A program made the position numbers and the translations under genes. From positions 124,000,001 through 124,064,000 of the forward strand of contig OZ024745.1 in assembly GCA_964016885.1 (NCBI GenBank): a stretch of DNA of 64,000 bases, read 5' to 3'. The notes beneath the pieces are model-generated. The model was not told the DNA's origin. It saw nothing but the letters and a program-made list of their open reading frames with translations, and did not search any database. Each line of letters opens with the position of its first letter. Positions within the stretch are counted from its first letter, which is position 1. Shown here in pieces: positions 2,752 through 62,545 of the stretch. The stretch is from Eledone cirrhosa. Taxonomy: Eukaryota.

Positions 2752-3158
2752 AATGTAGAAGGTGAGTTTTATTGTAGCACAATAAAGCAATGCAAATATC
2801 AGATAAGTACCACTCTACAGTTTGTCGGACTGGAGTATAAATAATATAAGATCAAAAGATGGTTAAAAGAGTTCCAAGTATTTTATTATGCACATTTCAA
2901 AAACAAATATCATCATGAGATGATATCTGCGTTTTCATCAGATAAAATAGGGATACATGATATGAAGGTTAAAAAAACACTTGTGAATAGTGAAGTTGAT
3001 TTAAAACTTCACTATTCACAAGTGTTTTTTTAACCTTCATATCATGTATCCCTATTTTATCTGATGAAAACGCAGATATCATCTCATGATGATATTTGTT
3101 TTTGAAATGTGCATAATAAAATACTTGGAACTCTTTTAACCATCTTTTGATCTTATAT

Positions 3159-3160
<2 letters not shown>
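2752..3160. mobile_element. Fold-back hammerhead element (about 155-bp arms 2842-2997 / 3005-3160) between (TA)n tracts
   Basis: Near-perfect inverted repeat with a hammerhead core in each arm. Confidence 0.8.
3053..3123 (+). ncRNA. Type I minimal hammerhead ribozyme (mirror copy on - strand about 2878-2950)
   Basis: TATTTTAT-CTGATGA-16-bp stem II-GAAA-T(GTGC)A-TA-ATAAAATA; stem I fully complementary; predicted cleavage after AUA at 3115. Confidence 0.8.
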
Positions 3161-3778
<618 letters not shown>

Positions 3779-7242: not shown

Positions 7243-9045
7243 TCTTCTTCTTCTTCTTCTTCTTCTTCTTCTTCTTCTTCTTCTTCTTCTTCTTCTTCTT
7301 CTTCTTCTTCTTCTTCTTCTTCTTCTTCTTCTTCTTCTTCTTCTTCTTCTTCCACTGAGAGAGTTGTAGGAGCAGAGTCCTCAAACACTCTTTCCAGCAG
7401 GTCCTGTCAAAAGCAACCATCTCCAACTAGATCCCCAAGAGAGACCAGCTAAGCTCATTGATGTTATCCAACCAGCTTCCTCAAGGTCTACATCAGGGTC
7501 TCCTGCCGGTTGGTTTTGCCTGTAAAATCTGTCCAGAGTTTCTTTCCTGAGACATTCTAACCTCATGCCCATAGTATCGGAGGTGTGGTCTCTCAATTCA
7601 GAGAAGTAGCAGCACTACCTAGAGTGACACTCTGATCTTCAAGTAATGTTACTCAAAAGACCCTTCAGATGAACCCCATTTTGGCTGCATGTATTCATGA
7701 TTATATTCTTTCGGTCATTACTCAAGATTCATGACCATAGGTAAAGGTTGGCGTGAATACTAAATTGAAGTTAGTGAGTTTGGCTTTTACGCCAACTTCC
7801 CTTCTTCTGATTACCGAATGCTGAAGCTGGCACATTACTACACCAGCTTCTGCAATTCTTGCACTTAATTCAATCTCCTGCTTTCCATCCCTCGCAAACA
7901 TGGCCCTGAGGCACTTGAATTTCTCCACTTGCTTCAGTGGAACTCCATTTACATGTATTGCACAAACTTCCTTGAGAGGACAAGTGTCTCAGTTTTTGCA
8001 GCACTGATTTTCATTCCCGCCATGTAGCACTCAGCATCAAACTTATTGCATGTAATTTGGAGATTACCATGTCTGCAAATTCCAACCCAGCGTCACATGT
8101 CAATCCTGTTCATGTAAAAAATAAACAGGAACAGTGACAGTATGCACCCTTGGCAGAGTCTGACTCCCACATTGAATGGTTTTGGTTTAGCACCGTTTAT
8201 CTGAACACAAATACTCGGGCGTTCATATAAAGACATCAGGGCAGCGAGAAGCTGACCATCGATCCCATACTCCTGCACAACCTTCCACAGCAGATCCCGA
8301 GGAAGATGGTCATATGCCTTTTCAAGGTTGACAAAACGAGAATGTACCTCTTGGAAATACTCCCATGATTTCTTGAATACCTGCCGCAGTGTGAATATTT
8401 GGTCGGCTGTGCTGCATCCGGGGTGAAAACTGCACTGCTCATCTGCTAGCTTGGACTCAACAATCTCCCTGCATCTCTTTGTCAGACACTTAGCATAGAC
8501 TTTACTGGAGAGGCTTAATAAGGAGATCTCTCTGTAATTGGAACAATCTCTCTTGTCTCCCTTTTTGAAAATTGGAATTATCCCTCCTCATTACCATTGC
8601 TTAGGTGCTTTTCCAGAGATCCAGGTCCCCCGGCACACATAAGTCAGCCAGAGAATACCTTCTCTATTTAAAGCTCTTAACATCTTGGGCTGGATTTTAT
8701 CTTCTTCAGCAGCCTTGCCACATGTGAGATTAGTCACCACTCCCAGTTGCCTCTGAGAGATTAGTCACCACTCCCAGATGCACTTCGCATACATCTGAAG
8801 ATGCTGTTGTGATCGGGTTTAAGAGATCAGCAAAGTACTCTCTCCACCTTGTGAGGATGCACTTCTCTGAAGATAGGATAACCCCAGACATGTTCGTGAT
8901 AGCAGGTGTGGAGGAGAGCTTCTTATTATGAAGTCGGCAGATGATCTGTCAGAACATTTTATTTGCTGATTTGAAGTTGGATTCCAGCTTAATCCAAAAG
9001 TCCTCCCATGTCTTAACCTTGGACGCCTTCACTATCTCTGCTGGG
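7243..9045 (-). mobile_element. RTE-clade LINE, 5'-truncated, degenerate RT, (GAA)n tail
   Basis: Fragmented RT motifs in several frames (VNLEKAYD, GVRLCQGCILS, VEKFKCL, TYGHES) ending at (TTC)n; same 3' end at 28207-28400. Confidence 0.85.
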
Positions 9046-16599: not shown

Positions 16600-16707
16600 A
16601 GAGTCAGGGGTCCTGACTCTTTTCCTATTACCCACTCTACTACCCTAAGTATTGAGTACTCTGGTGCATTATGGTCCACCTGGTATCTTACCACACCGTC
16701 TTTGTTT
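16600..16707 (+). mobile_element. 3' tail of a hammerhead-element family between (TA)n tracts
   Basis: gagtcaggggtcc...cctattacccactctactaccctaagtattgagtac...ccacctgg matches the tail at 40700-40783. Confidence 0.65.
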
Positions 16708-16719
16708 ATATATATATAT

Positions 16720-22651: not shown

Positions 22652-23387
22652 GGGAAGACAAATAGAGAGAGGGGAGAGGGGGGGGAGGGGGGGGGGGAGA
22701 GAAACGTTTGGCAAAGATAAGGGCTATCACTAGGGTGAATTGTTTGAGTGTAATGGTGGGGACATTGTCAAGGCTTTTGGCCTTATTGGCATGAAATGAC
22801 CAGAAGTGTTTTCACACATAACCTGTATGGTTATGTAACAGTGAGCCCGATGGAGTTGAAAGAGATAAATAACATGATTGAGAAATGCTGGTCTTTATTA
22901 TTTCTTTCAACATATTCTTTTATTTGTGTATGGAACTCTAATTCATTAAATTCTAGATACTTCTAAGACTGTGGTTGATCTAATTTTCTATTTTTTTAAA
23001 TATTCAACATGTATTAGAGTTTCTATTTATCATTTTTCTTCTCTTTGAGCTTTCCTTAACCCTTTTAACCCTTTAGCATTTACATTACTCTATATTTACT
23101 AATGTATATTCAAGGTAAAGGCTTTATCTCACATAGTTATCTCACATAATATTGAGTATATGAGATTTTGATGATGTTATTGTTTATTTTAAGAACGATA
23201 TCTTAATGTCGGTATGAGCTGCTGGTTATGGCTGGTTTCAAGAAGTGGTGGGAATTCTGGCCAGATTCATCTGGTTAATATATTTTTCTAAATCAAATTT
23301 ATTTCATGCCAATTTGACTTCTAAATCCATGACTATATGTAAAACGTTCTAGAAACATAAACATGAGATTATTGTCATCTCATATCA

Positions 23388-23712
23388 TGGCTTAGTGGTT
23401 AGAGCATTGGGCTTGCAATCGAAAGGTTGTGAGTTCAATTCTCAGACTGGGTGATGTGTTGTTTCCTTGAGCGAGACACTTTATTTCACATTGCTCCAGT
23501 TTACTCAGCTGTAGAAATGAGATGATAGGGACTGGGGTCCCTATCATTCCACTGCAAAGTGGTCGTGTAGGTGCCACGGCAAAAAATCACCCAACACTCT
23601 CACTGTAAATGAGATTGGTGTTAGGAAGGGCATCCAGCTGTAGAAATCAAGCCAGAATCAGTTCCTGTCCCACCCTTGCAAGCAGGGAAAACCGGACGTA
23701 AAATGATGATAA
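23388..23712 (+). mobile_element. tRNA-derived SINE family B with RTE-derived tail
   Basis: A box TGGCTTAGTGG, B box GAGTTCAATTC, body ccttgagcgagacact, tail ggtgttaggaagggcatccagc...ggacgtaaaatgatgat shared with RTE; copies 39135-39535 (-), 61548-61872 (-); diverged copies 2050-2185, 18635-18750, 48330-48460. Confidence 0.85.
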
Positions 23713-24729: not shown

Positions 24730-25729
24730 TAGATAAATCTACCAAGAGTTTACGGTAGTGTCCAATCCGTATGAAGAACTCAATGTAATCCGGATATCAT
24801 GGAAAGAAGAGATGCAATGAAAAATCACTTTCGGTGAAAGATAAACGGAATACAGAGTCAAGATAAAATATTAAAAAAATAATGAATAAAACAATGAAAC
24901 AGTTCCTTATATTAAACAAAAAAAGTTCATTATTTAACGATCGTTTCTGGGATATATATGTGTTAGAATTGGCATGTATATTTAACAGATCTATGTACAA
25001 AATTATACAAAATTATACAAACTATCAAAATTAAATACACATACCAACTCATATATATGCCGTCTTCAGAAATAATGAAATATATTTATTGATAATAACA
25101 ACAATTCAAAATTACAGGTCTGTTTGGGAACAGAGTTCAAATTGACCAATGGAAACACAAAAAGTTTATACAGTTAGGTGTGTGTATATATGTAAGTAAC
25201 TTCGTTCACAGATATGCATAAAAATATATGTTCACATGCATACGCATGCCGAAAAGATGTATGTAAATACAAAAATTCAGGGCTAATGTCTCTGTATGTT
25301 TATAATCTACAGATAAAATACATATACGCATATAAACATATAAATATAAAAATAAATATATACACATTCATATACTCACACATATACATACATTCACACA
25401 CACACGCGCATATATACACACACCTAACTGTATAAACTTTTTGTGTTTCCATTGGTCAATTTGAACTCTGTTCCCAAACAGACCTGTAATTTTGAATTGT
25501 TGTTATTATCAATAAATATATTTCATTATTTCTGAAGACGGCATATATATGAGTTGGTATGTGTATTTAATTTTGATAGTTTGTATAATTTTGTATAATT
25601 TTGTACATAGATCTGTTAAATATACATGCCAATTCTAACACATATATATCCCAGAAACGATCGTTAAATAATGAACTTTTTTTGTTTAATATAAGGAACT
25701 GTTTCATTGTTTTATTCATTATTTTTTTA

Positions 25730-25738
<9 letters not shown>
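24730..25738. mobile_element. Fold-back hammerhead element, 330-bp arms (24863-25192 / 25409-25738)
   Basis: Essentially perfect inverted repeat with 216-bp spacer, flanked by (TA)n. Confidence 0.8.
25522..25675 (+). ncRNA. Type I hammerhead ribozyme with about 115-nt extended stem II
   Basis: TTCATTATTT-CTGAAGA-long hairpin-GAAA-C(GATC)G-TT-AAATAATGAA; 10-bp perfect stem I; mismatch at the base of stem II. Confidence 0.7.
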
Positions 25739-25760
<22 letters not shown>

Positions 25761-26170
25761 TAAAATACAAATATTAATAAAATAGATGTTCTTTTGATCA
25801 ATTACATTTTATTATACATATTTCGGATGTACAACAGTACGTCCTCATCAGACAAAATATAATGATACATGACATACCCTGAGATGTTAAATGGTTAAGA
25901 TTTAATCAAGGTAGTACTTGATTAAATCTTAACCATTTAACATCTCAGGGTATGTCATGTATCATTATATTTTGTCTGATGAGGACGTACTGTTGTACAT
26001 CCGAAATATGTATAATAAAATGTAATTGATCAAAAGAACATCTATTTTATTAATACTTATATTTTAATATTAATAACTCCAGAAAATAATTTTTTCGTTG
26101 AGTGCTTCCAATCTACTGTAAAACTCATTCTTTGACATAATCATTGAATATTGTTTAACAATTTAATATA
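25761..26170. mobile_element. Fold-back hammerhead element, about 140-bp arms (25772-25910 / 25917-26055)
   Basis: Near-perfect palindrome with 6-nt loop, between (TA)n tracts. Confidence 0.8.
25967..26023 (+). ncRNA. Type I minimal hammerhead ribozyme (mirror copy on - strand)
   Basis: ATATTTTGT-CTGATGA-GGACGTAC(TGTT)GTACATCC-GAAA-T(ATGT)A-TA-ATAAAATGT. Confidence 0.85.
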
Positions 26171-31230: not shown

Positions 31231-31270
<40 letters not shown>

Positions 31271-31272
<2 letters not shown>

Positions 31273-31471
31273 CGAAGGAAATGTGGTAAGGAACCAGGTG
31301 GATCATAACGCACCAAAGTACTCAATACTTAGGGTAGTAGAGTGGGTAATAGGAACCAGTAAGACCCCGACGGCTGAGCTCAAGCCGTTTCGGCGGCTAA
31401 TTCTGGACTAATTTTAGTCCAGAATTAGCCGTCGAAACGGCTTGAGCTCAGCCGTCGGGGTCTTACTGGTT

Positions 31472-31474
<3 letters not shown>
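31271..31474. mobile_element. Fold-back element carrying the 3' half of a hammerhead
   Basis: Palindrome centred at about 31412; GAAA-CGGCT(TGAGCTC)AGCCG-TC stem III with GUC; between (TA)n tracts. Confidence 0.7.
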
Positions 31475-31515
<41 letters not shown>

Positions 31516-34056
31516 GTATGAATTGAAGTTGTAGCTGCCATATATATTCAATCACAGGGATTTTTCATATTTAATGAAAGGTAGTCTTTCCTGAAAATGA
31601 CATTGTATACTTTTGTATTATCAAGAACGTTATGTTGCCAGGAGTGAGGAGGCAAAATCGTAATGGCATTTTGGTACAGCTGCTGATAACATAGGTGATG
31701 TCTTCCACAGAAAATGCGTCATATTCATTGTTTTTGTTTGTATCTCAGAGCTTGGTGGACATCAGTTTCAAGTGATTTAAAAATGTCTTACTTGTAACAT
31801 TAAAATGCAAGTGGTAGTATATTTTATTGTCATGTGTACACTAAATTCAATTTTCAGGAAAATTCAGGATAACCCAGTGTGTGACAAATACCCTCCATCA
31901 GATTGGATTCTAAAAGAGTTTCTGTCTACCTTTGTGAGTTTCACTCACAAAACATTGGTTGACTTGAGGCTACAGTAAAAGAAACAGGGTCAAGATGCTA
32001 GTGAGAGAAATCAAACATAGGACTTTATGATTTTGAAGAAAGCTTCTTGACCATTTGACCGTACTTCCCCTAATTATCAGCATTCATTAGATTAAATTTA
32101 CTACATCACGCCTTTTCACTATTTTGACACTTAAAGGTTCATCTTCGACCTAAAGAAAGTGTCAAATGAAGGCTACATGCTTTGTTCATTTGACTCTTTA
32201 TAGATCAAAACGTATAGAAACAATATCAAACAAAAGATTATATCAGAGTATTATTAAAGTCGTTAAAAGATTCTTTTTAACAGAAGGATGCAGAGGTTAA
32301 ATAATCTATTTTCTAGATAAATAATCTTAGAAATGTTCAATTCTTCTTCTTCTCTATCTCTCTCTCTGTAGATCACATCAGATAAACTATTCATTTGAAT
32401 TTCATTTGACTGCAAGTGTCTAATAGACAGGAAATTCTTCAGCAGTATAGTCTTCTGGGACATCTGTATTAGACAATATCCTTCTATTTGATGCCACCTC
32501 AGAACCAAAGCAATTTGGTTCATTCACTTGCAGATGACATACATGTTTATTAATGAACTAATGATTATAAAATATTTCTTTTTCTCTCTTGACTCAGGCT
32601 TCCTGTTGCACACACACACACACACACACATACTCATAGTCATACACACATGCACGCAGACTCACAGACACATACTCATACACACACATATCACACATGT
32701 ACACACATATGCACACACACATACATACATAAATTCATGCATGCATACACACCGTACTACAGTCAACGCGATCAGTCGCATATTTTGGCGTGGGAGATTG
32801 TTTATTAAATTTAAGATGAATACTATCTCCGAAAGTAATGCCACAACTACCAGTCATATCTTTTGAAGACACCTTTTATTCGAATTCGTAGAGATATCTG
32901 ACTAAATACATAGTTCATTTTACAAGTATTTGCTACAAACAGCATGGCTGAACACAACATCAACAATAACAATATCAGTGGAATACCAAAGAAAAACGAG
33001 AAAGGTAAACAAAATGTATTCAGTTGTAGCTACAGAAGAAACCGAAATTATAAATCGCATTTCTCTTGGAGTTGCGAACTTGATGATTTATTTCATTGTT
33101 ATAAAATGGCAAAAAACACTCCCTCCATTGGCTATATGAACAGAATGAAGCTACACTGGGACGAAATACACCCAGAGCTAAATCACTTAATAGCGAAACA
33201 ATTACGCCAACAAGCGACGTTTGTTGATCGTAAAAATAAGACAAATATTATTAATTGTAAGTCCCCCACAACAAACATGGAATCAACAACACGTGCTACC
33301 GGTCGCCATGCTACTAAACTTCCTAGCAGCCAGGTCGAACAGTGCTTGAAACAATTATGCCTGTAAGAAACTTGATACCACCTGTACCATCTAAGTCTAC
33401 CTCGAATGCTGGGGAAAACACTATCGATAATAATAATAATCGAACAAATTTGACACCACGTGCACCCTCCGAGTCTACCTCAACTATTGTGGAAAATACT
33501 ATCGATAATGATAATAATCAAAAGTATAAACAATTGAAAATTTCCCTCAACGAAATCTTCCAGAGAGAAATTAATTCATGTATAAATATCTCTCTTGCTG
33601 AACGTATTAAAACAGCAATATTTAATAAAAAAAAAAAAAAAAATAATGAAATATTACGTGTTATTGACGAAATAGGGGATGAATATTTACGACGGATAAA
33701 AACCCCAACATCTGGGCAAATCAACGCCTGTTTATATGCCTTAGCAACGACAGTGAAACATTATCTTGGTGATAGCAGAGATATTAACAAGAACAAAACA
33801 CCACCAAAAATACCATCATATATAACTAAAATAGAAAAAAAGATTGCTGACCATAGGATATGTGACAATGCTTCTTACATTCAAACAAACACAAAAAACC
33901 TCACTCTTCACCAACAAAGAGAGAAAAATAAAATTGAGACGATGTTTGGTAACAGTAGAACCAGAACTCTTCAATATAAGCTGATCACCCTCAAACAAGA
34001 ATTGAGAGCTGTTAGCGAAAAACGCCGATACCTGAAGAAAGGTAGATGAAAGAAAA

Positions 34057-35282
34057 GTGCTTAAAACATTCAGACGAAACCAAACATCAGTCTATAGAGA
34101 TATGAAGGGCAAAATAATAAGTGTCACTGAGGCCCCATCCCAGAAAGACATAGATTCCTTTTGGAGAAAAATATGGGGTAAAAAGAAGAATTTCAACCAA
34201 GATGCAGTGTGGCTAAAAGAAATCCGAAAGAACTATTGCTCCTACACTACAACAAAAACATACGAAATAAGTGAGGGTACTCTTGAGACTGTAATAGGAA
34301 AACTCCAAGATAAGAAAACACCAGGAAGAGACATGATTGTCAGCTACTGGTACAAAAAACTGATATTTTATCGGAGGTATCTTACTGACCTCTACCAACA
34401 AGTTCTTAAGGGAGATGCACTTATACCAGAATGGTTGACATTAGCACAAACATTACTGGTCCCCAAGAACAAAGACACCCACTTGGCAAAAAACTACCGA
34501 CCCATTGCATGCCAGAACCTGATGTATAAGATGTATACAGCCTGCTTGAACCTATTCCTCCAAGATCACTGTGAAAATAATAACATCATCACAGATGAAC
34601 AAGCAACTGGAAAGAAGGGGGTTTGGGGATGTGCTGAACAACTCCTAATCAACAAAACTGCGATGTCGGAGGTGCGACAACTTAGGAGGAATATGGCTAC
34701 AGTCTGGATGGACTACAGGAAAGCTTTTGATTATGTTCCTCACTCTTGGATGATAGAGGCCCTCCAACTTGCTAAAGTCCCAGACATTATTTTCAGAGCC
34801 ATAGAGAAGCTGTCTTCTTCTTGGGCTACTATCTTAAAGTTAAAGACAGAGAGGGAGGACTCTATTTTCACTGATAAAATAAAATATCACAGGGGTATAT
34901 TTCAAGGAGACAGTCTCTCTGTGATATTATTCATCCTGTCATTAAACCCCTTGTCCTTTCTGCTCAAGAAATGTGACGGAAACATCGTTGGCTCACAGGA
35001 GGACAGAAATACGAACCTAACCTATAATTTCTTTGTGGATGATCTGAAACTCTATGCCAAGAACATGGATGGAATGAAGAAAAATCTTGACCTGGTTACA
35101 ACGTTCTCAAAGGATGTAGGAATGGAGTTTGGCCAAGATAAATGCTCATATATGACTGGAAAGCGGGGTAAAACAACAACCCAATCTAGCAACATCGTCA
35201 TCAATGGCCTAACTGTTTCACCAATATCTGATGAGGACTGCTACAGATACCTGGGGATAGATGAGAACATATCTTATAATGG
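34057..35282 (+). pseudogene. Reverse transcriptase domain of the R4-clade LINE
   Basis: Open RT frame up to the LTR insertion at ENISYNG. Confidence 0.85.
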
Positions 35283-35671
35283 TGTAGCAAGAGTTGCCTC
35301 CCTTGTTATGACGATCCCATCACCAGTAGCGCTCTCTAGACAGGAAGTAGCTGGAGTTACTTCCCGTTGAGGTGGCAGAACCTTCTTTGTTACTTCCGTC
35401 CGGGGAACTATAAAGGAGATAGCTGAAAGCTATCTTCCTCTCTTTTAATCTGCCTGGCCCTTCAGCCAGGCGCGTTCCGCCGAGGGTATACTCTCTGGCA
35501 ACCTGAACATGGTAATGTAAAGACCTCTTGGTCTCTTGCGTGCTGACTTCAAAACGGTAACAACTAACTTTAATTCATCCTTTCATCTCTCTTGTCATGT
35601 CAACTATTCTGCTTTACATAGCTCAACCTTGTTAAATAAACATTGTACATACAACCCAGTGTCCTGTTATA
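35283..35671 (+). mobile_element. Solo LTR (probably Gypsy) inserted in the R4 RT
   Basis: TGTAGCA...TGTTATA ends, 4-bp TSD ATGG, TATAAA at about 35409, AATAAA at 35635; removing it restores YNGIC. Confidence 0.8.
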
Positions 35672-37224
35672 ATGGTATCTGTAATAAGGAACGCGTAACC
35701 AGGGAATACTACACCCGATCAAGAAAAATATGGTCATCGGAACTCTTTGCACAAAACAAAACAGTGGCTCACAATGTGTTTGCTGTGCCTGTCCTAACAC
35801 CAACGTTTGAAATACTCAAGTGGATGATAAATGAAATCCGAGCAGTTGATGTTAGAACTCGAAAAATTCTAAACAACACCAGAAACTTCCACATCAACAG
35901 TGACATAGACCGCTATTACTTGTAACGTAAGCAGGGAGGCAGAGGCCTAACATCAGTCCAGACAGCATTTGAATGTAGGATCATATCCCTCCGACAGCAT
36001 CTTCGAAGCGTAGGAGCCCGTCTCTCGAGCAAGTCTATCTGCATGAAGCAGATAAGATCATGAGAGTTGGGAAGGAACTTCTCGAGATATATTCCCTGTG
36101 TGATAATCAAAATTTCACACCCAGGGAAGTCGCTCAGCAGTATCGCAGTGAATTCATGGATGAAAAACTGCATGCTTATCAGCAAAAAATCATGCATGGA
36201 TATGTTGCCAGGAAGCTCCAGAGTGAGAGTAATATAGATAAGGAAAGTAGTCTATCTTGGACCAACAACCGCTATATTGGCTCCCACTTTGAAGGATAAG
36301 CTTTTGCAATCCAAGAACGGGAAATTAACATGAAATATCTGTTTCACAAAAGTGATAGGGATGCAGGCAAAACACCTAGATGTGATAACAAGTGCAGACT
36401 CTGCATAATTAACATCGAAAATGTCACCCATGTCATCAGCAGCTGTCCAAAGATGTCATCGCGGTACTATCTACCTATGAGGCATGATGTAGTGGCCAAA
36501 ACACTATAATGCAATCCGTAGAAAAGATAGCCCCGATAATAAACACATTAAAAGCTACAGCAATGTGGAAGACATCCATATACATAATATAAAAGAGTAA
36601 TGGTGGAATGTTCCAGTAAAAACCCCAAATAAAATGAAGACATAACAGACCAGATATTATATGGGACAGGGAAAAGAAAGCATGCATAGTAGTGGAAGTT
36701 AGCTGCCCAGCAGATGCCAATATAATATCAAAGATTAGTGAAAAGGAGAATATTTATGCAGAACTGATGAGAAATCTGCAGATACTCCACCCTGATTACA
36801 CCTTCAGATTTATGCCTGTGATTATTGGGGCACTGGGATATGTTAGTAACTGCCTCAATACAAATCTTGAGAAGCTAGGCCTCACAGAAACAGAAAGAAC
36901 ACAACTAGTTAGGAAATTACAAGTACAATCCATTAATGGAACAGTAAAAATATGTAAAACATTCCAAAAATTTTGCATCTAATAACTGCATATACACATG
37001 TACAGATACAAAGAATATACACATGCACACATACAACTCAAAACATCCACATCCACACATACAATAACATCCATATCTACACATGCATGCATGCATAATC
37101 TACATAGTTGATGTGTAAATTCGAATGAGAGAGTCTTGTGTCTATGTTAGAAACCGACTCTCTCTCTATTGGGAACAAATTTATGAAATTATACAACCAG
37201 AAGAACATCCATACATACATAAAT

Positions 37225-39117: not shown

Positions 39118-39746
39118 AAAATACTGTCACTCATCATCATCATCATCATCACCACCACCGTTTTATGTCCGTTTCTCCACGCAAGCATGGGTTAGACGGG
39201 TTGTCCTGTTGTGGGCAATGTCTGGTCGGCTGACCTTGTCTTGCTCATACAGGAACTGATTTTGGCTTGATTTCTACAGCTGGATGCCCTTCCTAACACC
39301 AACCTCATTTACAGTGAGTGCTGGGTGCTTTTTTGCCGTGGCACCTCCATGACCACTTTACAGTGGAATGATAGGGACCCCAGTCCCTATCATCTCATTT
39401 TTACAGCTGAGTAAATTGGAGCAATGTAAAATAAAGTGTCTTGCTCAAGGAAACAACACATCACCCGGTCCGAGAATTGAACTCACAACCTTTCGATTGC
39501 AAGCCCAATGCTCTAACCACTAAGCCATGTGCCTTCACTCCTATGTGGAAAATGCACGTTGAATTCTCGAATTGAATGACATCAATGTATTACTGTATAG
39601 ATAAACATACATATATTTCACTTCAATAGCAGTGTAAGAATGCCAGACACGAGTGTTTTAATATGTTTTATTCATCATTGGTGTTGATTACTCATTCAGT
39701 ACTGTTAGTACTGATACAAATTCATCCAAGCCAGTCAAACTCATAT

Positions 39747-40488: not shown

Positions 40489-40551
<63 letters not shown>

Positions 40552-40554
<3 letters not shown>

Positions 40555-40783
40555 AACCAGTAAGACCCTGACAGCTGAGCTCAAGCCGTTTCGACGGCTA
40601 ATTCTGGACTAAATGAAAATTTATCCTAGGATAAATTTTCATTTAGTCCAGAATTAGCCGTCAAAACGGCTTGAGCTCAGCTGTCGGGGTCTTACTGGTT
40701 CCTATTACCCACTCTACTACCTCAAGTATTGAGTACTTTGGTGCGTTATGGTCCACCTGGTTCCTTACCACATTTCCTTCGTT
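40552..40783. mobile_element. Fold-back half-hammerhead element with zero-loop palindrome centre (CCT|AGG)
   Basis: About 78-bp arms around 40627/40628; same family as 31271; between (TA)n tracts. Confidence 0.75.
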
Positions 40784-40939
40784 ATATATATATATATATA
40801 AGAAATAGGATTTCGCTTCAGGCATAGCTTTATACAATATGCATAGAAATTTCGTATTTCGAAATAAATACGATTTTGGGAAGCCGTAGCTATGCGAACA
40901 CCCGGGGGCTAGCCGCCCTCTGGTGTTGTCCAGTGGGAG

Positions 40940-40990
40940 GGATCATCCTGACGATGGCCAATCAAGCCTGAAATGCATAGACGGTTGTCC
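40940..40990 (+). ncRNA. Minimal hammerhead, copy 1 (slightly degenerate)
   Basis: GATCATC-CTGACGA-TGGC(CAATCAA)GCCT-GAAA-TGCA-TA-GACGGTT. Confidence 0.7.
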
Positions 40991-41276
40991 CCATTGCTTC
41001 TGCTGGACAACACCAGAGGGCGCTAGTACCCCCCCCCCCCCCCCCGGTGTTCGCATAGCTTCGGCTTCCTAAAATCGTATTTCGAAAGAAATACGAAATT
41101 TCTATACATATTGTATGAAGCTATGCTTGAAGCGAAATCTTGTTTCTTTTCTATTATGAGTTGAGCCAACTTATGCAGCTTCATATGCAAATGAGATTAA
41201 TCACCTCATTTACACAGATGAGAAGACTATATGTTCTTGGCTGTTTTCAAGTCCACCAGTTGCAGAGCGGTGGGAG

Positions 41277-41324
41277 GGACCGTCCTGACGAAGGCCAGTC
41301 AAGCCTGAAATGCATAGACGGTTG
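41277..41324 (+). ncRNA. Minimal hammerhead, copy 2 (intact)
   Basis: GACCGTC-CTGACGA-AGGC(CAGTCAA)GCCT-GAAA-TGCA-TA-GACGGTT; palindromic ATGCAT stem III. Confidence 0.85.
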
Positions 41325-41447
41325 TCCCCCTTGCTTCTGCTGGACAACACCAGAGGGTGCTAGACCCCACCCCACCCTGGTGTTCGCATAGCTACAGCTT
41401 CCTAAAATCGTATTTCTTTTGAGATACGAAATTTCTCTCTATATATA

Positions 41448-41552
<105 letters not shown>

Positions 41553-42049
41553 GTGTATATATATGTATGTGTTAGCAGTTGTACTAATATAATGTGATTC
41601 ATAATAAAGGCATATATGAAATCATATACAATATATTTATATATAACAAATATACATAAATCTTGTTATTGGTATTTTCACATCTACCTCAGCAACTATA
41701 TAAGAATGTCAAACACTTATTTTTCAGTATCTTTATCCACCTTCAGTGACATATGTTCATTTGCTACTGAGGTAAAATAGGCTACAGCTTATATAGATTA
41801 TGCAGATGCAACTGGCATAGCTGTGACATAACCACAGCTTAAAATATCCATAACAAGACGTTTGTATGTTTATATAGCTAAACATATCTCTCATGTACAC
41901 AATATTTGATGCCTCTTATAACCAGTTTCTCTCTCTTCTCACCCATGCTTTGTTGTTCATACACATTAACATCATATATTAACTGAACAATGCTTGCTTT
42001 ATATATAAATATATGCATATGTATACATAATGTAAGAATGTATATATAT

Positions 42050-42350
42050 ACAAGGATATTAAATAAATGGAAACTATATTTATAAAACCATATTTATTTT
42101 ATTATATATATTTCAAGGGTACCAAGACACATTGGTACGCTTTCATCAGATAAAATATAAATTTGTTTTATAAATAGCGACATACCCATGAAAATCATAC
42201 CTTATCGGTTGGAAATTCACTGGATAGTCACTATCCAGTGAATTTCCAACCGATAAGGTATGATTTTCATGGGTATGTCGCTATTTATAAAACAACTTTG
42301 TATTTTATCTGATGAAAGCGTACCAATGTGTCTTGGTACCCTTGAAATAT
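42050..42350. mobile_element. Fold-back hammerhead element, left part (continues at 45172-45326)
   Basis: Palindrome centred at about 42229; + strand TATTTTAT-CTGATGA-AAGCGTACCAA(TGTGTC)TTGGTACCCTT-GAAAT is interrupted by the RTE; intact mirror hammerhead on - strand about 42093-42157. Confidence 0.8.
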
Positions 42351-45171
42351 CATCATCATCATCATCATTTAACGTCCATCTTCCACGCTTGCATGGGTTT
42401 GGACGGGAGTTTTCCCACTTGAGGCAAGATTTGTCGTATAGGACTGTCTGGCGGGTTTTCTACGGCTGGATGCCCTTCCTAACACCAACCACGTTTACAG
42501 TGTGGACTGGGAGGTTTTTACCGTGTTACCTACACGGCCACATTACAGCGTGGACTGTGTTTTTTTGTCGTGACAACTACACGACCTCATTTGTTTCGGA
42601 CTGGATGTTGTGGTACCAACATAACTTCACATTGAAGGGGGTGGTGTGGATGGGGTGGGGTAGTGGGACAGGGGTGTATTTTTGTTAGAGGTGCCTACCG
42701 ACTAGGTTTCGCTTTGTACTTAGGCAAGGTGGGTCTTCTGTATTACTGTGTAGCGCCAAAGATCTCGGTCCAGTGACATTGTCTTGGAGAGGTGTAAGTG
42801 TGTGAGGTCAGAATTTATCAAGTCGTCCCAGGTTTTTCTGGGTCTGCCTACTCCGTGGCTACCGTCTATTTTTATCGCCCTGCACTTTTTTTATACAGCT
42901 ATCGTCTTTCATGCGCATCGTGACCATACCAACGTAGTCTTCTCTCGAGTAAACAACATCTGTGTGTCCCACCGTTCCAGATGCTTTCAGCATTTCAGCA
43001 ACTATTTCCAAAGGCCCTACCTGTCTTCCGAAGGCCTTACCCGTCTTCATATCTTTGATTGCCTTACTTATTATACTACCTTCAACTAGCACTGCTGGTC
43101 CCTCTATTGGATCGATGTGGGGGAGACTGTCTTTCTCCCATTTATTCTCCTCATTTAATAGCCTTTCGTAGTGACACTTCCAAGCTACCTTCTTATCAGC
43201 GTCAGTGATGGCAAGTACACCATCATCATTAAGGACACACTTCTCCCCGACAATATCACGGTTTTCCTTGACACATTGCCTAGCAATTCTGAACACCTCA
43301 CGTTTTTGGTCCTCGCGTTGTAGAACATGCTTGAACTTTCTTTCCTCTGCTTCCCTTCTTGCGAAGTACACTTGTCTCCTAGCTTCCCTCCTGGCCACTT
43401 GATAGTCTTCTCTACTTCCCCCATCCCGCCATACTTTCCAAGTCTGCTTTTTGGCCTTAATTGACTCCTCCACCCATCAAGTAATATGCTTTTAAATTTA
43501 TTACTGGCTGTGGGGTCCTTTAACTTCCATATTTTTCTCCTAAGGATAGTCGTCCTCTGTTGTGGAATACGTCTCGTCCTGACTATGATGTCGCTGACTA
43601 TGAGTCTATGTTGGGAGGTGCATTCTTCATGGGGAAGGGATTTAGTGTTTACAACAGACACTCTATCATGTCTTCTGGTAAGAATATAATCTATCTGACT
43701 GGTGTGTTCCCCTAATCTATAGGTGATCAAGTGATTGTCTCGTTTTTTGAAGTTAGTGTTACAGATAGTTAGGTTATTTATGTCACAGGATTCTGGAGCC
43801 TTCCTCATTTCTAGTACCAAACCTATAGCCTCCATGGATTCCGTCATAGCCGTCACAATGTTGTCCAACGTGACCATTTAGGTCGCCAGCAATAATTATG
43901 TAGTCACTGTCGGTTATTTGGGAGGTAGTGAGCATCAATGTCTCATAGAATCTGTCTTTTATAGTGCCAGGCAGTCCTGATTGGGGTGCATACGCAGATA
44001 TTACTGTCACAGTAGTTCTATTTAGGACAAGTCTTATTCTGTCGTTCACTCTATTTACGTCTATTATCTTATCTACCCATTTTTCTGCTAACATGATTCC
44101 TATCCCACCCAGCCCATTGTCATTTCCCACCCAGAAAAGCTTATAGCATCGTTTTTTACCCACAATGAATCTAGCAGACCCACCCCTCCACCTGGTCTCT
44201 TGGATACAGCAAACATCAACCTCCTTACGTTCAAGCATTTCTACAACCTCATTAGAGCGACCTTTTAAGGTGCCTACATTCATGGTACCAACTCTGAAGG
44301 TTTGGATTGCGTTTGGTGGGTGGGAATGGTGGGGCGTGGGGAGGGGTTAGGGGGATGGGGTTGGGGGTATGTTGGCCATCCGCGGCTGAAACAAAGAGGA
44401 GGAGTCCTTGCCTTTTCGTCCGGCAGCATGAGGTGAATTTATCTTTATCTTTGGCATTGTCACTGAGTGTCCAGATTTTTCAGACTCTCCAGAATTCCTT
44501 AGTCCATCCATCATATCGAAAAGCAACCAAGAGAAGTGATAGCATAGGCCGTTGACTTATGATTGGTCCAAATAATAATGGTGGAGAGTGGGGGCGGGTG
44601 GGAGGAGTATGGGGTAGTTAGCAAGAGGGTTTAAATAAAATCTTCGAATTTTGGGCATAATTGTACAAGCATATAACAGTAATAAGCGAATAATGGGATT
44701 TTAAAATACAAGAAGATTATTTAGAACAACCAGACAGAATTATAGAATAGCATTGAGAAAGAGCAAAAGATTGGATTCTGGGCGATGATACGGATATATG
44801 AATGAATGAACCAAGAGGCTGGAGAGACAAGAAAAAATGGCATTTTACATTATATTTCACAGGAGAGCGAGCAGGTCTGACCATTAATAAGCGTTGACAA
44901 ATTCTGAGATTCGTACCTCATAACAGGTTTATTTATATTTGGTGAGAGAAGGGAGTGATTGAAAGGGTGAACCAGCAGGCGCGTATACGATAAGGGGGGG
45001 GGGGGTAAAGATTAAGAAGGACAAGGAGGCCATTTTATAAATCCTAGAATTTTTGGCCGAAATTAAACAAACACGATTGTTATTTTAGAAAAACAAATCG
45101 GGTAGTTAGCGAGAGGGTTTAAATAAAATCTTCGATTTTGGGGCATAATTGGACAAGCATATAACAGTAAT
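42351..45171 (-). mobile_element. RTE LINE with 5' UTR and APE endonuclease, RT internally deleted, (GAT)n tail
   Basis: GTMNVGTL, CIQETRW, SAYAPQ, GDLNGHVG and QIDYIL motifs; jump at about 42960 from the pre-RT region straight to the ORF C-terminus. Confidence 0.9.
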
Positions 45172-56756: not shown

Positions 56757-57838
56757 TCATCATCATCATCATCAACGTTTAACGTCCGTGTTCCACGCTT
56801 GCATGGGTTTGGACGGAGGTTTTCCCACTTGAGGCAAGAGTGATTGTCTTGCTCGCATAGGACTGTCTGGCGGGTTTTCTACAGCTGGATGCCCTTCCTA
56901 ACACCAACCACATTTACAGTGTGGGTCTGGGAGGTTTTTACCGTGTTGCCTACACGGCCACATTACAGTGTGGACTGTGTGTTTTTTTTGTCGTGGCACC
57001 TACACGATCTCATTTGTTTCGGCCTGGATCAACATAACTTTACATTGAAGGGGCGGTGTAGATGGGGTGGTGGTGGTGGTGGTGGTGGTGGGGGGGGGGG
57101 GGGGGGGGTATTTTGTTAGAGATGCCTACTGGCTGTAGTAGGTTTTACTTTGTATTTAGGTAAGGAGGGTCTTCTCTATTACTGAGTACCGCCACAGGTC
57201 TCGGTCCAGTGACATTGTCTTGGAGAGGTGTAAGTGTGTGAGGTCAGAATTTATCACCTCGTCCCAGGTTTTTCTGGGTCTGCCTACTCCGTAGCTACCG
57301 TCTATCTTTATTGCCCTGCACTTTGTTATACAGCTGTCGTCTTTCATGCGCATCACGTGACCATACCAACGTAGCCTTCTCTCGAGTAAACAACATCTGA
57401 TCCCTCTTATTTCTAATTTTTTCCTTAGTTCGCTTATGCTTTGCCATTCACGTATGTTACTATTACACATCCAGCGGAGCATGCAAGCTTCGTTCCTCTC
57501 TAGTCTGCATATATCCTCTGCACACAATGCCCAGGTCTCACTGCCATGCAACATTGCTGTTCGTATGCAGACATCATACAACCTGCCTTTCATTCTTAGG
57601 GAGAACCCTTTAGCGGCTAATAGTGGTATAAGCTCTCTGAACTTTTTCCAACCAGTTCTGACTCTAGCTACAGTACTTTCAGAACACCCTCCCCCACTGC
57701 TGATTTTGTCACCCAGGTAACGGAAGCTGTCCACTATTTCTATAGAACCCTCTGCGCAATTGAAAGAGCTAGTATTCTGTGGGCACTTGCTGCTACTTAT
57801 TGCACCAGAGCACCGGCCACATGTAAAATCTATGTTCT
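56757..57838 (-). mobile_element. RTE LINE 3' end, young, with ORF 57156-57734
   Basis: SFRYLG..HGSETW..RRLRWYGHV..GRPRKTW; 3' UTR and (GAT)n tail; smaller pieces at 54650-54915, 58624-58870 and 47270-47500. Confidence 0.9.
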
Positions 57839-61189: not shown

Positions 61190-62545
61190 AATTAAAAAAC
61201 AGAGTTCAAAACACACATTAATCCCCTATAATTTAATGAGCTCAAGGAATAGAATCTGGGCTCTTTATAAATCACCATATAGAGAAAAGTACACATAGAG
61301 ATATGTGTTTAATTATAGGGGATCAAAAACCACCAGAGTGACGAACATATAACCTATGGAAGGAATGGTGAATACAAATCAATAAAAAGAATATATTAAA
61401 GAGTACTAACCATCTGAATATAACAATACACCTGGACATGCTCAAATTAGAGCATGTTTCGCTATAAAAAGTGAAGAATCCATATTATAGATGTAGCTCA
61501 TCAGTGGGTGCCTAGCAATACGATCAACACTTCATTCATTCATCATTTCATTTTATGTCCACTTTTCCCTGCTTGCAAGGGTGGGACGGGAACTGATTCT
61601 GGCTTGATTTCTACAGTTGGATGCTCTTCCTAACACCAACCTCATTTACAGTGAGTGCTGGGTGCTTTTTTGCCGTGGCACCTCCTGGACCACTTCACAG
61701 TGGAATGATAGGGACCCCAGTCCCTATCATCTCATTTCTACAGCTAAGTAAACTGGAGCAATGTGAAATAAAGTGTCTTGCTCAAGGAAACAACACATCA
61801 CCCGGTCTGAGAATTGAACTCACAACCTTTTGATTGGAAGGCCAATGCTCTAACCACTAAGCCATGTGCCTCCAAATAAATATATCAGATAACTAAGAAA
61901 ACATGCATGGTATAGAGCAAAGACATGTGCGTTGATTTATAGCCCAGAATCTATTCCTTGAGCTCCTTAAATTATAGGGGATTAATGTGTGTAATGTGTG
62001 TTATAGGGGATTAATGTGTGTAATGTGTGTTATAGGGGATTAATGTGTGTAATGTGTGTTAAATTTTAATTTGATATTTTGGCTCCTAATTCATTTCTGT
62101 ATGTAAGTAAAGCTTCTAAAGTTGAATGGTTCTGAGCTGCTGTTTTTAGCAGTCTTTTGGTCTATTCACACCACCATGGGCTATATAACACATGTATTTC
62201 CTCTATACTATGTGTGTTTTCTTAGTTATCTGATATATTTATATGGAAGTGTTGAATGAAATGATGAATGAATGAAGTGTTGATCGTATTGCTAGGCACC
62301 CACTGATGAGCTACATCTACAATATAGATTCTTCACTTTTTATAGCGAAACATGCTCTTATTTGAGCATGTCCGAGTGATGTTGTTATAATCGGATGGTT
62401 AGTACTCTTTGATATATTCTTTTTATTGATTTGTATTCCCCATTCCTTCCGTAGGTTATATGTTCATCACTCTGGTGGTTTTTGATCCCCTATGATTGAA
62501 TACATATCTCCATGTGTACTTCGCTCTATATGGTGATTTATATAT
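61190..62545. mobile_element. Fold-back hammerhead element with nested SINE B
   Basis: 61265-61550 is inverted against 62255-62542; 61873-61945 against 62178-62248; 61210-61262 against 61940-61992. Confidence 0.8.
62297..62378 (+). ncRNA. Type I hammerhead with full 7-bp stem III (mirror copy on - strand 61429-61510)
   Basis: CACCCA-CTGATGA-GCTA...TAGC-GAAA-CATGCTC(TTATTT)GAGCATG-TC-CGAGTG; stem I partly decayed. Confidence 0.8.

Follow-up and report, generated by a model that had tools for sequence, protein, structure and literature searches.

A decayed retrozyme copy with two hammerheads in Eledone cirrhosa and its probable Penelope-type insertion

Two hammerhead motifs lie in direct orientation in a 64,000-nt stretch of Eledone cirrhosa contig OZ024745.1 (the window, to whose numbering positions given without a locus name refer). 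A first-pass annotation had put this locus forward as the best candidate for a circular-RNA retrozyme, which raises two questions: how did the locus come to carry two hammerheads in a row, and does it release a circle?

Layout of the locus and its two hammerheads

The locus consists, in order, of TA repeats, an inverted arm, a full repeat unit, a partial unit and again TA repeats. The (TA)n tract on the left (40784..40800, no strand) is taken as a target remnant from its sequence and from the TA repeats at the right ends of family loci described below. The inverted 5′ arm (40801..40933, minus strand) spans unit positions about 71-219, lacks a hammerhead core and, by self-comparison, has 87% complementarity with 41040-41154; at its outer side lies the 'long' one of two fixed ends, with a tail of roughly 43 nt. 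The inversion junction (40927..40933, no strand) falls inside a self-complementary extension of stem I and probably formed at a short microhomology. One full unit follows at 40933..41269 (plus strand), 337 nt at this locus against a family consensus of 329 nt, as delimited by self-comparison and family comparison. The partial second unit (41270..41437, plus strand) runs from unit position 1 to about 165-172 and stops at the 'short' fixed end, about 41436-41444. A (TA)n/(TG)n tract at 41440..41568 (no strand), again read from the sequence, is the target remnant on the right. The first-pass annotation had drawn the element at 40801..41437; this interval does hold both hammerheads, but the inverted arm and the partial second copy had gone unmentioned, and with them the Penelope anatomy that explains the layout.

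A TATA-like motif (41225..41240, plus strand; family unit 288-299) carries one change in the locus copy and is a putative promoter; ARAGORN found no tRNA-derived promoter. The insert contains no open frame of at least 130 aa, and so no RT or GIY-YIG frame of the kind that an autonomous Penelope element would have. A 119-nt contig of run X1, from a sample that may be the assembly's own, matches 40872-40990 with zero differences and crosses the inversion junction.

Both hammerheads are where they had been placed at first reading. CUGACGA cores at 40948 and 41285 are followed by GAAA at 40970 and 41307 and by AUGCAU at 40973-40978 and 41310-41315, and the cleavage triplet AUA ends at 40979 and 41316, after which the cuts are predicted. 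The spacing of cores and of cut sites is 337 nt and bears out the cut-to-cut unit proposed earlier, a predicted non-coding monomer at 40980..41316 (plus strand). A strict type I descriptor applied to the 64-kb window returned two matches on the plus strand, both of them the locus hammerheads, and one on the minus strand, against a mean of 0.075 matches per shuffle in 40 dinucleotide shuffles; with the positions of core, GAAA and AUGCAU, this control upholds the dimer-type type I assignment. Searches with Rfam hammerhead models gave no match at the gathering score or at E ≤ 10, and the only Rfam matches were sub-threshold, hairpin-driven ones to microRNAs.

Hammerhead 1 (40942..40985, plus strand; core 40948-40954, stem II 40955-40969, GAAA 40970-40973), whose stem III is capped by a palindromic UGCA loop, is damaged: it has an A·C mismatch in stem I (40945/40982), a U·U at the base of stem II (40955/40969) and a change in loop 2 (40961). 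Structure prediction for hammerhead 1 alone does not yield the hammerhead fold, and its stem I has a predicted pairing probability of about 0 in both transcript folds. Hammerhead 2 (41279..41322, plus strand; core 41285-41291) is intact, its stems I and II forming with a predicted P of 0.9-1.0 in the full-locus and circle folds, which drops to 0.07-0.48 without the inverted arm. Opening both cores is predicted to cost 5.5-7.8 kcal/mol against the 4.7 kcal/mol that the AUGCAU duplex would provide, in models that leave out tertiary contacts and proteins. Folded as a circle, the 337-nt monomer is predicted to reach -104.9 kcal/mol (z -5.4) with 61% of it paired. The type I signature (a CUGANGA core, GAAA and NUH around stems I-III) is present in hammerhead 2 and in the family, and in hammerhead 1 with the stem I mismatch; where a tandem unit would have at least two complete hammerheads, the locus has two cores, of which that of hammerhead 1 sits in stems that fail the test. 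Cleavage at hammerhead 1 of this copy, after its decay, is judged unlikely from these models.

Other repeats share the window. The element adjoins on its left a different TA-flanked repeat (40550-40800), a 97% palindrome without a visible hammerhead core that recurs at 31254-31512, 3450-3573 and 16622-16719. Four near-perfect palindromes, each arm of which has a CUGANGA core, lie at 2836-3166, 24863-25738, 25757-26070 and 42108-42350, the last with a motif at 42149 that passes the strict hammerhead descriptor; they are likely two-armed Penelope-type inserts of other families. Fragments of LINE-type endonuclease/RT frames were recognized by eye at 32914-35925 (plus strand) and at 42859-44346, 57156-57836 and 8093-8587 (minus strand), and a tRNA-derived SINE-like repeat occurs at 23386-23706, 39249-39537 and 61548-61874, with an Rfam tRNA match at 23386-23449.

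The 329-nt family and its insertion footprint

The locus is one copy of a dispersed, high-copy family with a 329-nt unit, for which a first look at the 3.0-Gb genome gave 2242 candidates. A search with a 35-nt core pattern gave 755 exact matches genome-wide and 0 for the reversed control, and a second motif, downstream of the cut, has 557. This dispersal, together with the lack of a long open frame in the insert, agrees with the earlier placing of the non-coding unit among retrozymes. A sister subfamily has three pairs of stem II and one of stem I changed on both sides and retains loop 2 and the palindrome; its cut triplet is mostly AUC, that of the main subfamily AUA. These compensatory changes, found on comparing 152 and 20 gap-free copies of the two subfamilies and amounting to few events rather than many independent ones, indicate that the fold was kept by selection in the source elements. 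Once inserted, genomic copies have decayed about neutrally. Divergence is 2.5% in the cores and 3.1% elsewhere, which is no clear signal of selection on the cores, and a test of core and stems was passed by 70 of the 154 complete hammerheads. RNA-editing scars were not seen (A>G at 124/11585, T>C at 115/11638, p 0.56).

Several copies stand in larger repeats. At L006, L009, L014 and L027 (G000:C6:70.45-70.55 Mb) the same insert with its flanks occurs at least 4 times within 100 kb as a segmental repeat, and core matches at C1:143.35-143.80 Mb are spaced in much the same way. About 10 family units form a single array at L224/L227 (G000:C2:83920659-83923932); all 10 have a private stem I change, and other variants are common to non-adjacent units (5/10 and 3/8), so that the array grew in part by DNA duplication and was rejected as clean proof of rolling-circle copying. 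Elsewhere, tandem 310-nt units with another hammerhead (L102:1-1340) show 0-1 differences in 140 nt between units, which makes this array a candidate retrozyme much younger than the copies of the 329-nt family.

For the insertion footprint, the first 100 of the 557 listed downstream-motif matches gave 84 loci, of which 83 were analyzed, using end windows fixed from an earlier 55-locus set, a few of whose loci recur among the 83. In 76 of the 83 loci the right end falls within one of two windows, unit 162-186 or 203-223, which together make up 46 of 329 positions; the two fixed 3′ ends are about 43 nt apart. TA repeats adjoin the right end in 67 loci, a raw count with no background rate. An inverted 5′ arm is present in 53 loci and absent in 30. 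Where both outer ends are canonical, one is long and the other short at 37 of 40 loci (p about 1e-8). The tail sequence is found in the inverted arm and not in the direct arm at 10 of 23 long/short loci, which argues that both arms were primed from the template, separately; snap-back copying as the source of the inverted arm was rejected for these 10.

Penelope-like elements are described as carrying a tail of 30-40 bp on one end, an inverted 5′ copy and a partial tandem, with a bias toward microsatellites (10.1101/2021.04.23.441226). In an anole element, two internal start sites lie downstream of the hammerhead and the tail is the segment that separates them; its enzyme is reported to act on AT-rich target DNA, both strands of which are cut and extended (PMC11167929). 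The 329-nt family has the partial tandem with an inverted 5′ copy, the tail at one end arising from two fixed start sites, and the AT-rich or microsatellite target, and we regard Penelope-type insertion of this family as very probable.

The genome contains young Penelope-type open frames for RT and GIY-YIG, of 938, 1096 and 636 aa. Long frames that join a Penelope-type RT to GIY-YIG, with a cysteine linker, lie at L081:2809-5622 (minus strand), L083:775-4062 (plus strand) and L084:2722-4629 (minus strand); copies of the L081 type are 97% alike, a short hammerhead lies in the 3′ region of the L084 family, and the GIY-YIG domain of L083 was called by Pfam in one search and missed in another. No partner sharing sequence with the family was found among the 40 Penelope-type loci examined (of 10595 GIY-YIG candidates). 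Comparison of the family with 40 GIY-YIG loci by blastn and nhmmer gave no match, and the 3′ regions of 14 Penelope-type loci had other hammerheads or none. By tblastn, 22 Penelope-type proteins matched 29 of 180 family loci, in no case in a way that read as joined to the element.

The template of insertion

The reading that we favor, with a little more confidence than doubt, is that the locus is a decayed non-LTR retrozyme copy, inserted by a Penelope-type RT and endonuclease acting in trans and copying a small RNA circle; for the family at large we lean toward a small circle as the insertion template with perhaps slightly greater assurance. The endonuclease would cleave a (TA)n tract on both of its strands. 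Each of these would then serve as primer for reverse transcription, starting at one of two positions inside the unit that lie ~125 and ~170 nt 3′ of the ribozyme cut, and the two cDNAs would join head to head through a short microhomology. At the locus this would have given one arm of 1.5 units and another of 0.45 unit, and it is the 1.5 units in one arm that place two hammerheads in a row. In younger source copies, two hammerheads may pair through AUGCAU and then cut, after which a host ligase would close the monomer; the Penelope-type reverse transcriptase and endonuclease would be supplied in trans. A circle as template was proposed earlier (PMC4209133).

Arms read through the cut site: 97 of 127 cross one, and none of those at risk ends within 5 nt of the first cut. 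A cut linear monomer was rejected as the usual template, since the cut holds 3 of 145 5′ junctions where 3.1 would be expected. The distribution of arm lengths is not exponential, and beyond about one unit the truncation rate is 4.4-fold higher (30 ends over 12136 nt before, 66 over 6026 nt after), a threshold that was picked after the data were seen. Between the two arms of a locus, agreement at subfamily sites is 91%, where chance would give 53%. Read-through and the truncation step fit a circular template, and an uncut linear one too; for read-through the linear fit is no worse. Tentatively, we speculate further that a dimer of the Penelope protein uses one ribozyme-made circle to prime the two strands of the (TA)n break, one at each fixed site, and stalls at RNA that has already been copied after one turn; the pairing of long with short ends and the one-unit truncation jump would then be the genomic footprints of this step. 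One observation at the locus counts against a circle: at both sites diagnostic of the subfamilies, hammerheads 1 and 2 are unlike each other. Just 2 of 28 tandem pairs show this, which a single circle would not yield without later conversion. The difference points to conversion or a template switch.

The same element and enzyme may instead have copied an uncut linear transcript, in the manner of a miniature Penelope with two pseudo-LTRs. Transcription would start ~50-60 nt upstream of the first cut and produce 1.5 units, the RT would start at the fixed sites of the last unit, and the hammerheads would cut rarely, late or with protein help only, circles being a side product or absent. We consider this possible, though well short of an even chance. 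Arms cluster below about 520 nt, with 1 of 127 longer, so that they rarely exceed ~1.5 units, and the locus shows exactly the 1.5-unit layout, with a weak stem III of one pair. The arms of 2.0-2.7 units at several loci, however, need longer templates than most loci offer, and, with the 2.7-unit locus, L010, left out of the 83-locus set, long arms are undercounted there. An excess of 5′ ends lies at unit 308-2, just downstream of the TATA-like motif (11 versus 4.4 expected, p 0.006, post hoc), but this stretch coincides with the hairpin base where microhomology inversion junctions form. Uncut RNA is the main substrate of the anole enzyme, with protein-assisted cleavage and, in the data described, no RNA-seq ends at the cut (PMC11167929), Penelope hammerheads are reported to have low in vitro activity (PMC4209133), and of 9 Xenopus dimers only 1 is reported to have cleaved in vitro (10.64898/2026.07.22.740005); the family hammerhead, on the other hand, has the canonical 6-bp and 4-bp stems described for circle-forming retrozymes (PMC7229834).

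That the locus itself is an active source of 337-nt circular RNA, released by double cleavage of a dimer, appears improbable. In its favor, neither catalytic core and neither AUGCAU palindrome is damaged, and the predicted circle has a good fold that would present an intact hammerhead. A U·U at the base of stem II is found in 40 of 152 family copies, and an axolotl retrozyme tolerates such a pair (PMC7229834). Against this, stem I of hammerhead 1 is not predicted to form, and the cost of opening the cores exceeds the duplex energy given above. The copy differs by 3.6% from fixed family positions and is more decayed than 65% of 103 loci. Upstream of hammerhead 1 the locus lacks the family TATA-like motif, so that a dimer transcript would depend on read-through from outside, and no host gene was recognized by eye among the long open frames of the 64-kb window.

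The standing of best candidate, given to the locus at first reading, was thus lost: hammerhead 1 is damaged and not predicted to fold, two direct cut sites are common in the family (10 of 83 loci), and among the 23 loci that have two complete direct hammerheads, the 6 in which both motifs are intact do not include this one. The near-identical 310-nt array in the same genome is also much younger. For bench work the locus is the wrong pick, and the intact dimers L004, L005, L010, L012, L018 and L028 or the younger 310-nt arrays are better. From the layout, the back-junction of a circle would have the same sequence as head-to-tail genomic copies, so that junction reads or divergent-primer RT-PCR alone would prove no circle.

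A chance motif, an assembly artifact or a DNA-transposon MITE with terminal inverted repeats is extremely improbable: inverted sequence at the start of the insert and partly at its end, the TA-repeat setting and the missing Rfam hammerhead match would suit it, but the stems covary, the core pattern is abundant against an empty reversed control, the inverted arms vary in length, are missing from 30 of 83 loci and are 87% alike rather than identical, and the identical X1 contig, possibly from the assembly's own sample, crosses the inversion junction.

Comparison with known retrozymes and Penelope-like elements

On its testable sequence features, the family belongs to the metazoan non-LTR retrozymes, a putative non-autonomous Penelope class, and the locus is an ordinary, aged member of this known class. 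Its unit is within the size range of non-LTR retrozymes (about 150-450 nt), is non-coding and has one type I hammerhead, and the 755 and 557 exact motif matches show the dispersed, high-copy distribution of such elements. As described for newt satellite 2 and axolotl Amex1 and Amex2 (Cervera and de la Pena 2020, PMC7229834), the repeat is non-coding and 329-337 nt long, the type I hammerhead has a 6-bp stem I, a 4-bp stem II and a one-pair stem III with a palindromic tetraloop, the U·U variant occurs at the base of stem II, no LTR-type features are seen, and the predicted circle is self-paired with the hammerhead still folded. Unlike the retrozymes of that account, the family, known here from genomic copies, is mostly scattered in inserts of 0.5-1.8 units that have inverted arms, not in long head-to-tail arrays, and its main subfamily has an AUA triplet. 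The weak stem III is of the newt and axolotl (amphibian) kind, whereas invertebrate motifs are described as mostly having a stable helix III (PMC7761336). Our literature search returned no report of a cephalopod retrozyme family, nor of this 329-nt family or of paired ends in retrozyme inserts; for the giant squid, 235 hammerhead-1 matches are given, as a count only (PMC6962438).

A link between retrozymes and Penelope was proposed in PMC7229834, and non-LTR retrozymes have since been argued, from sequence, to be non-autonomous Penelope derivatives (Li, Clavereau and Pollet 2026, 10.64898/2026.07.22.740005). The family resembles the Xenopus retrozymes of the latter report in co-occurring with Penelope-like elements and in forming monomers, dimers and rare multimers, but differs in the nature of the link, which there is sequence kinship to pseudo-LTRs and here is the insertion footprint, with no partner by sequence in 40 loci. 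With endonuclease-bearing Penelope-like elements (10.1101/2021.04.23.441226, PMC4209133), among them anole Poseidon (PMC11167929), it shares the partial tandem, the inverted 5′ copy, the tail on one end, two start sites downstream of the hammerhead, and AT-rich and microsatellite targets. Hammerheads occur in Penelope pseudo-LTRs as well (PMC4209133), where they are minimal, whereas that of the family is canonical; the family also differs in having no RT or GIY-YIG frame and a tail of about 43 nt rather than 30-40 bp (10.1101/2021.04.23.441226).

To the known retrozyme-Penelope link the family adds an insertion footprint, and with it two testable numbers, the pairing of long with short ends at 37 of 40 loci and the 4.4-fold rise in truncation after one unit. 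The circle step, if true, would explain the origin of Penelope-type partial tandems.
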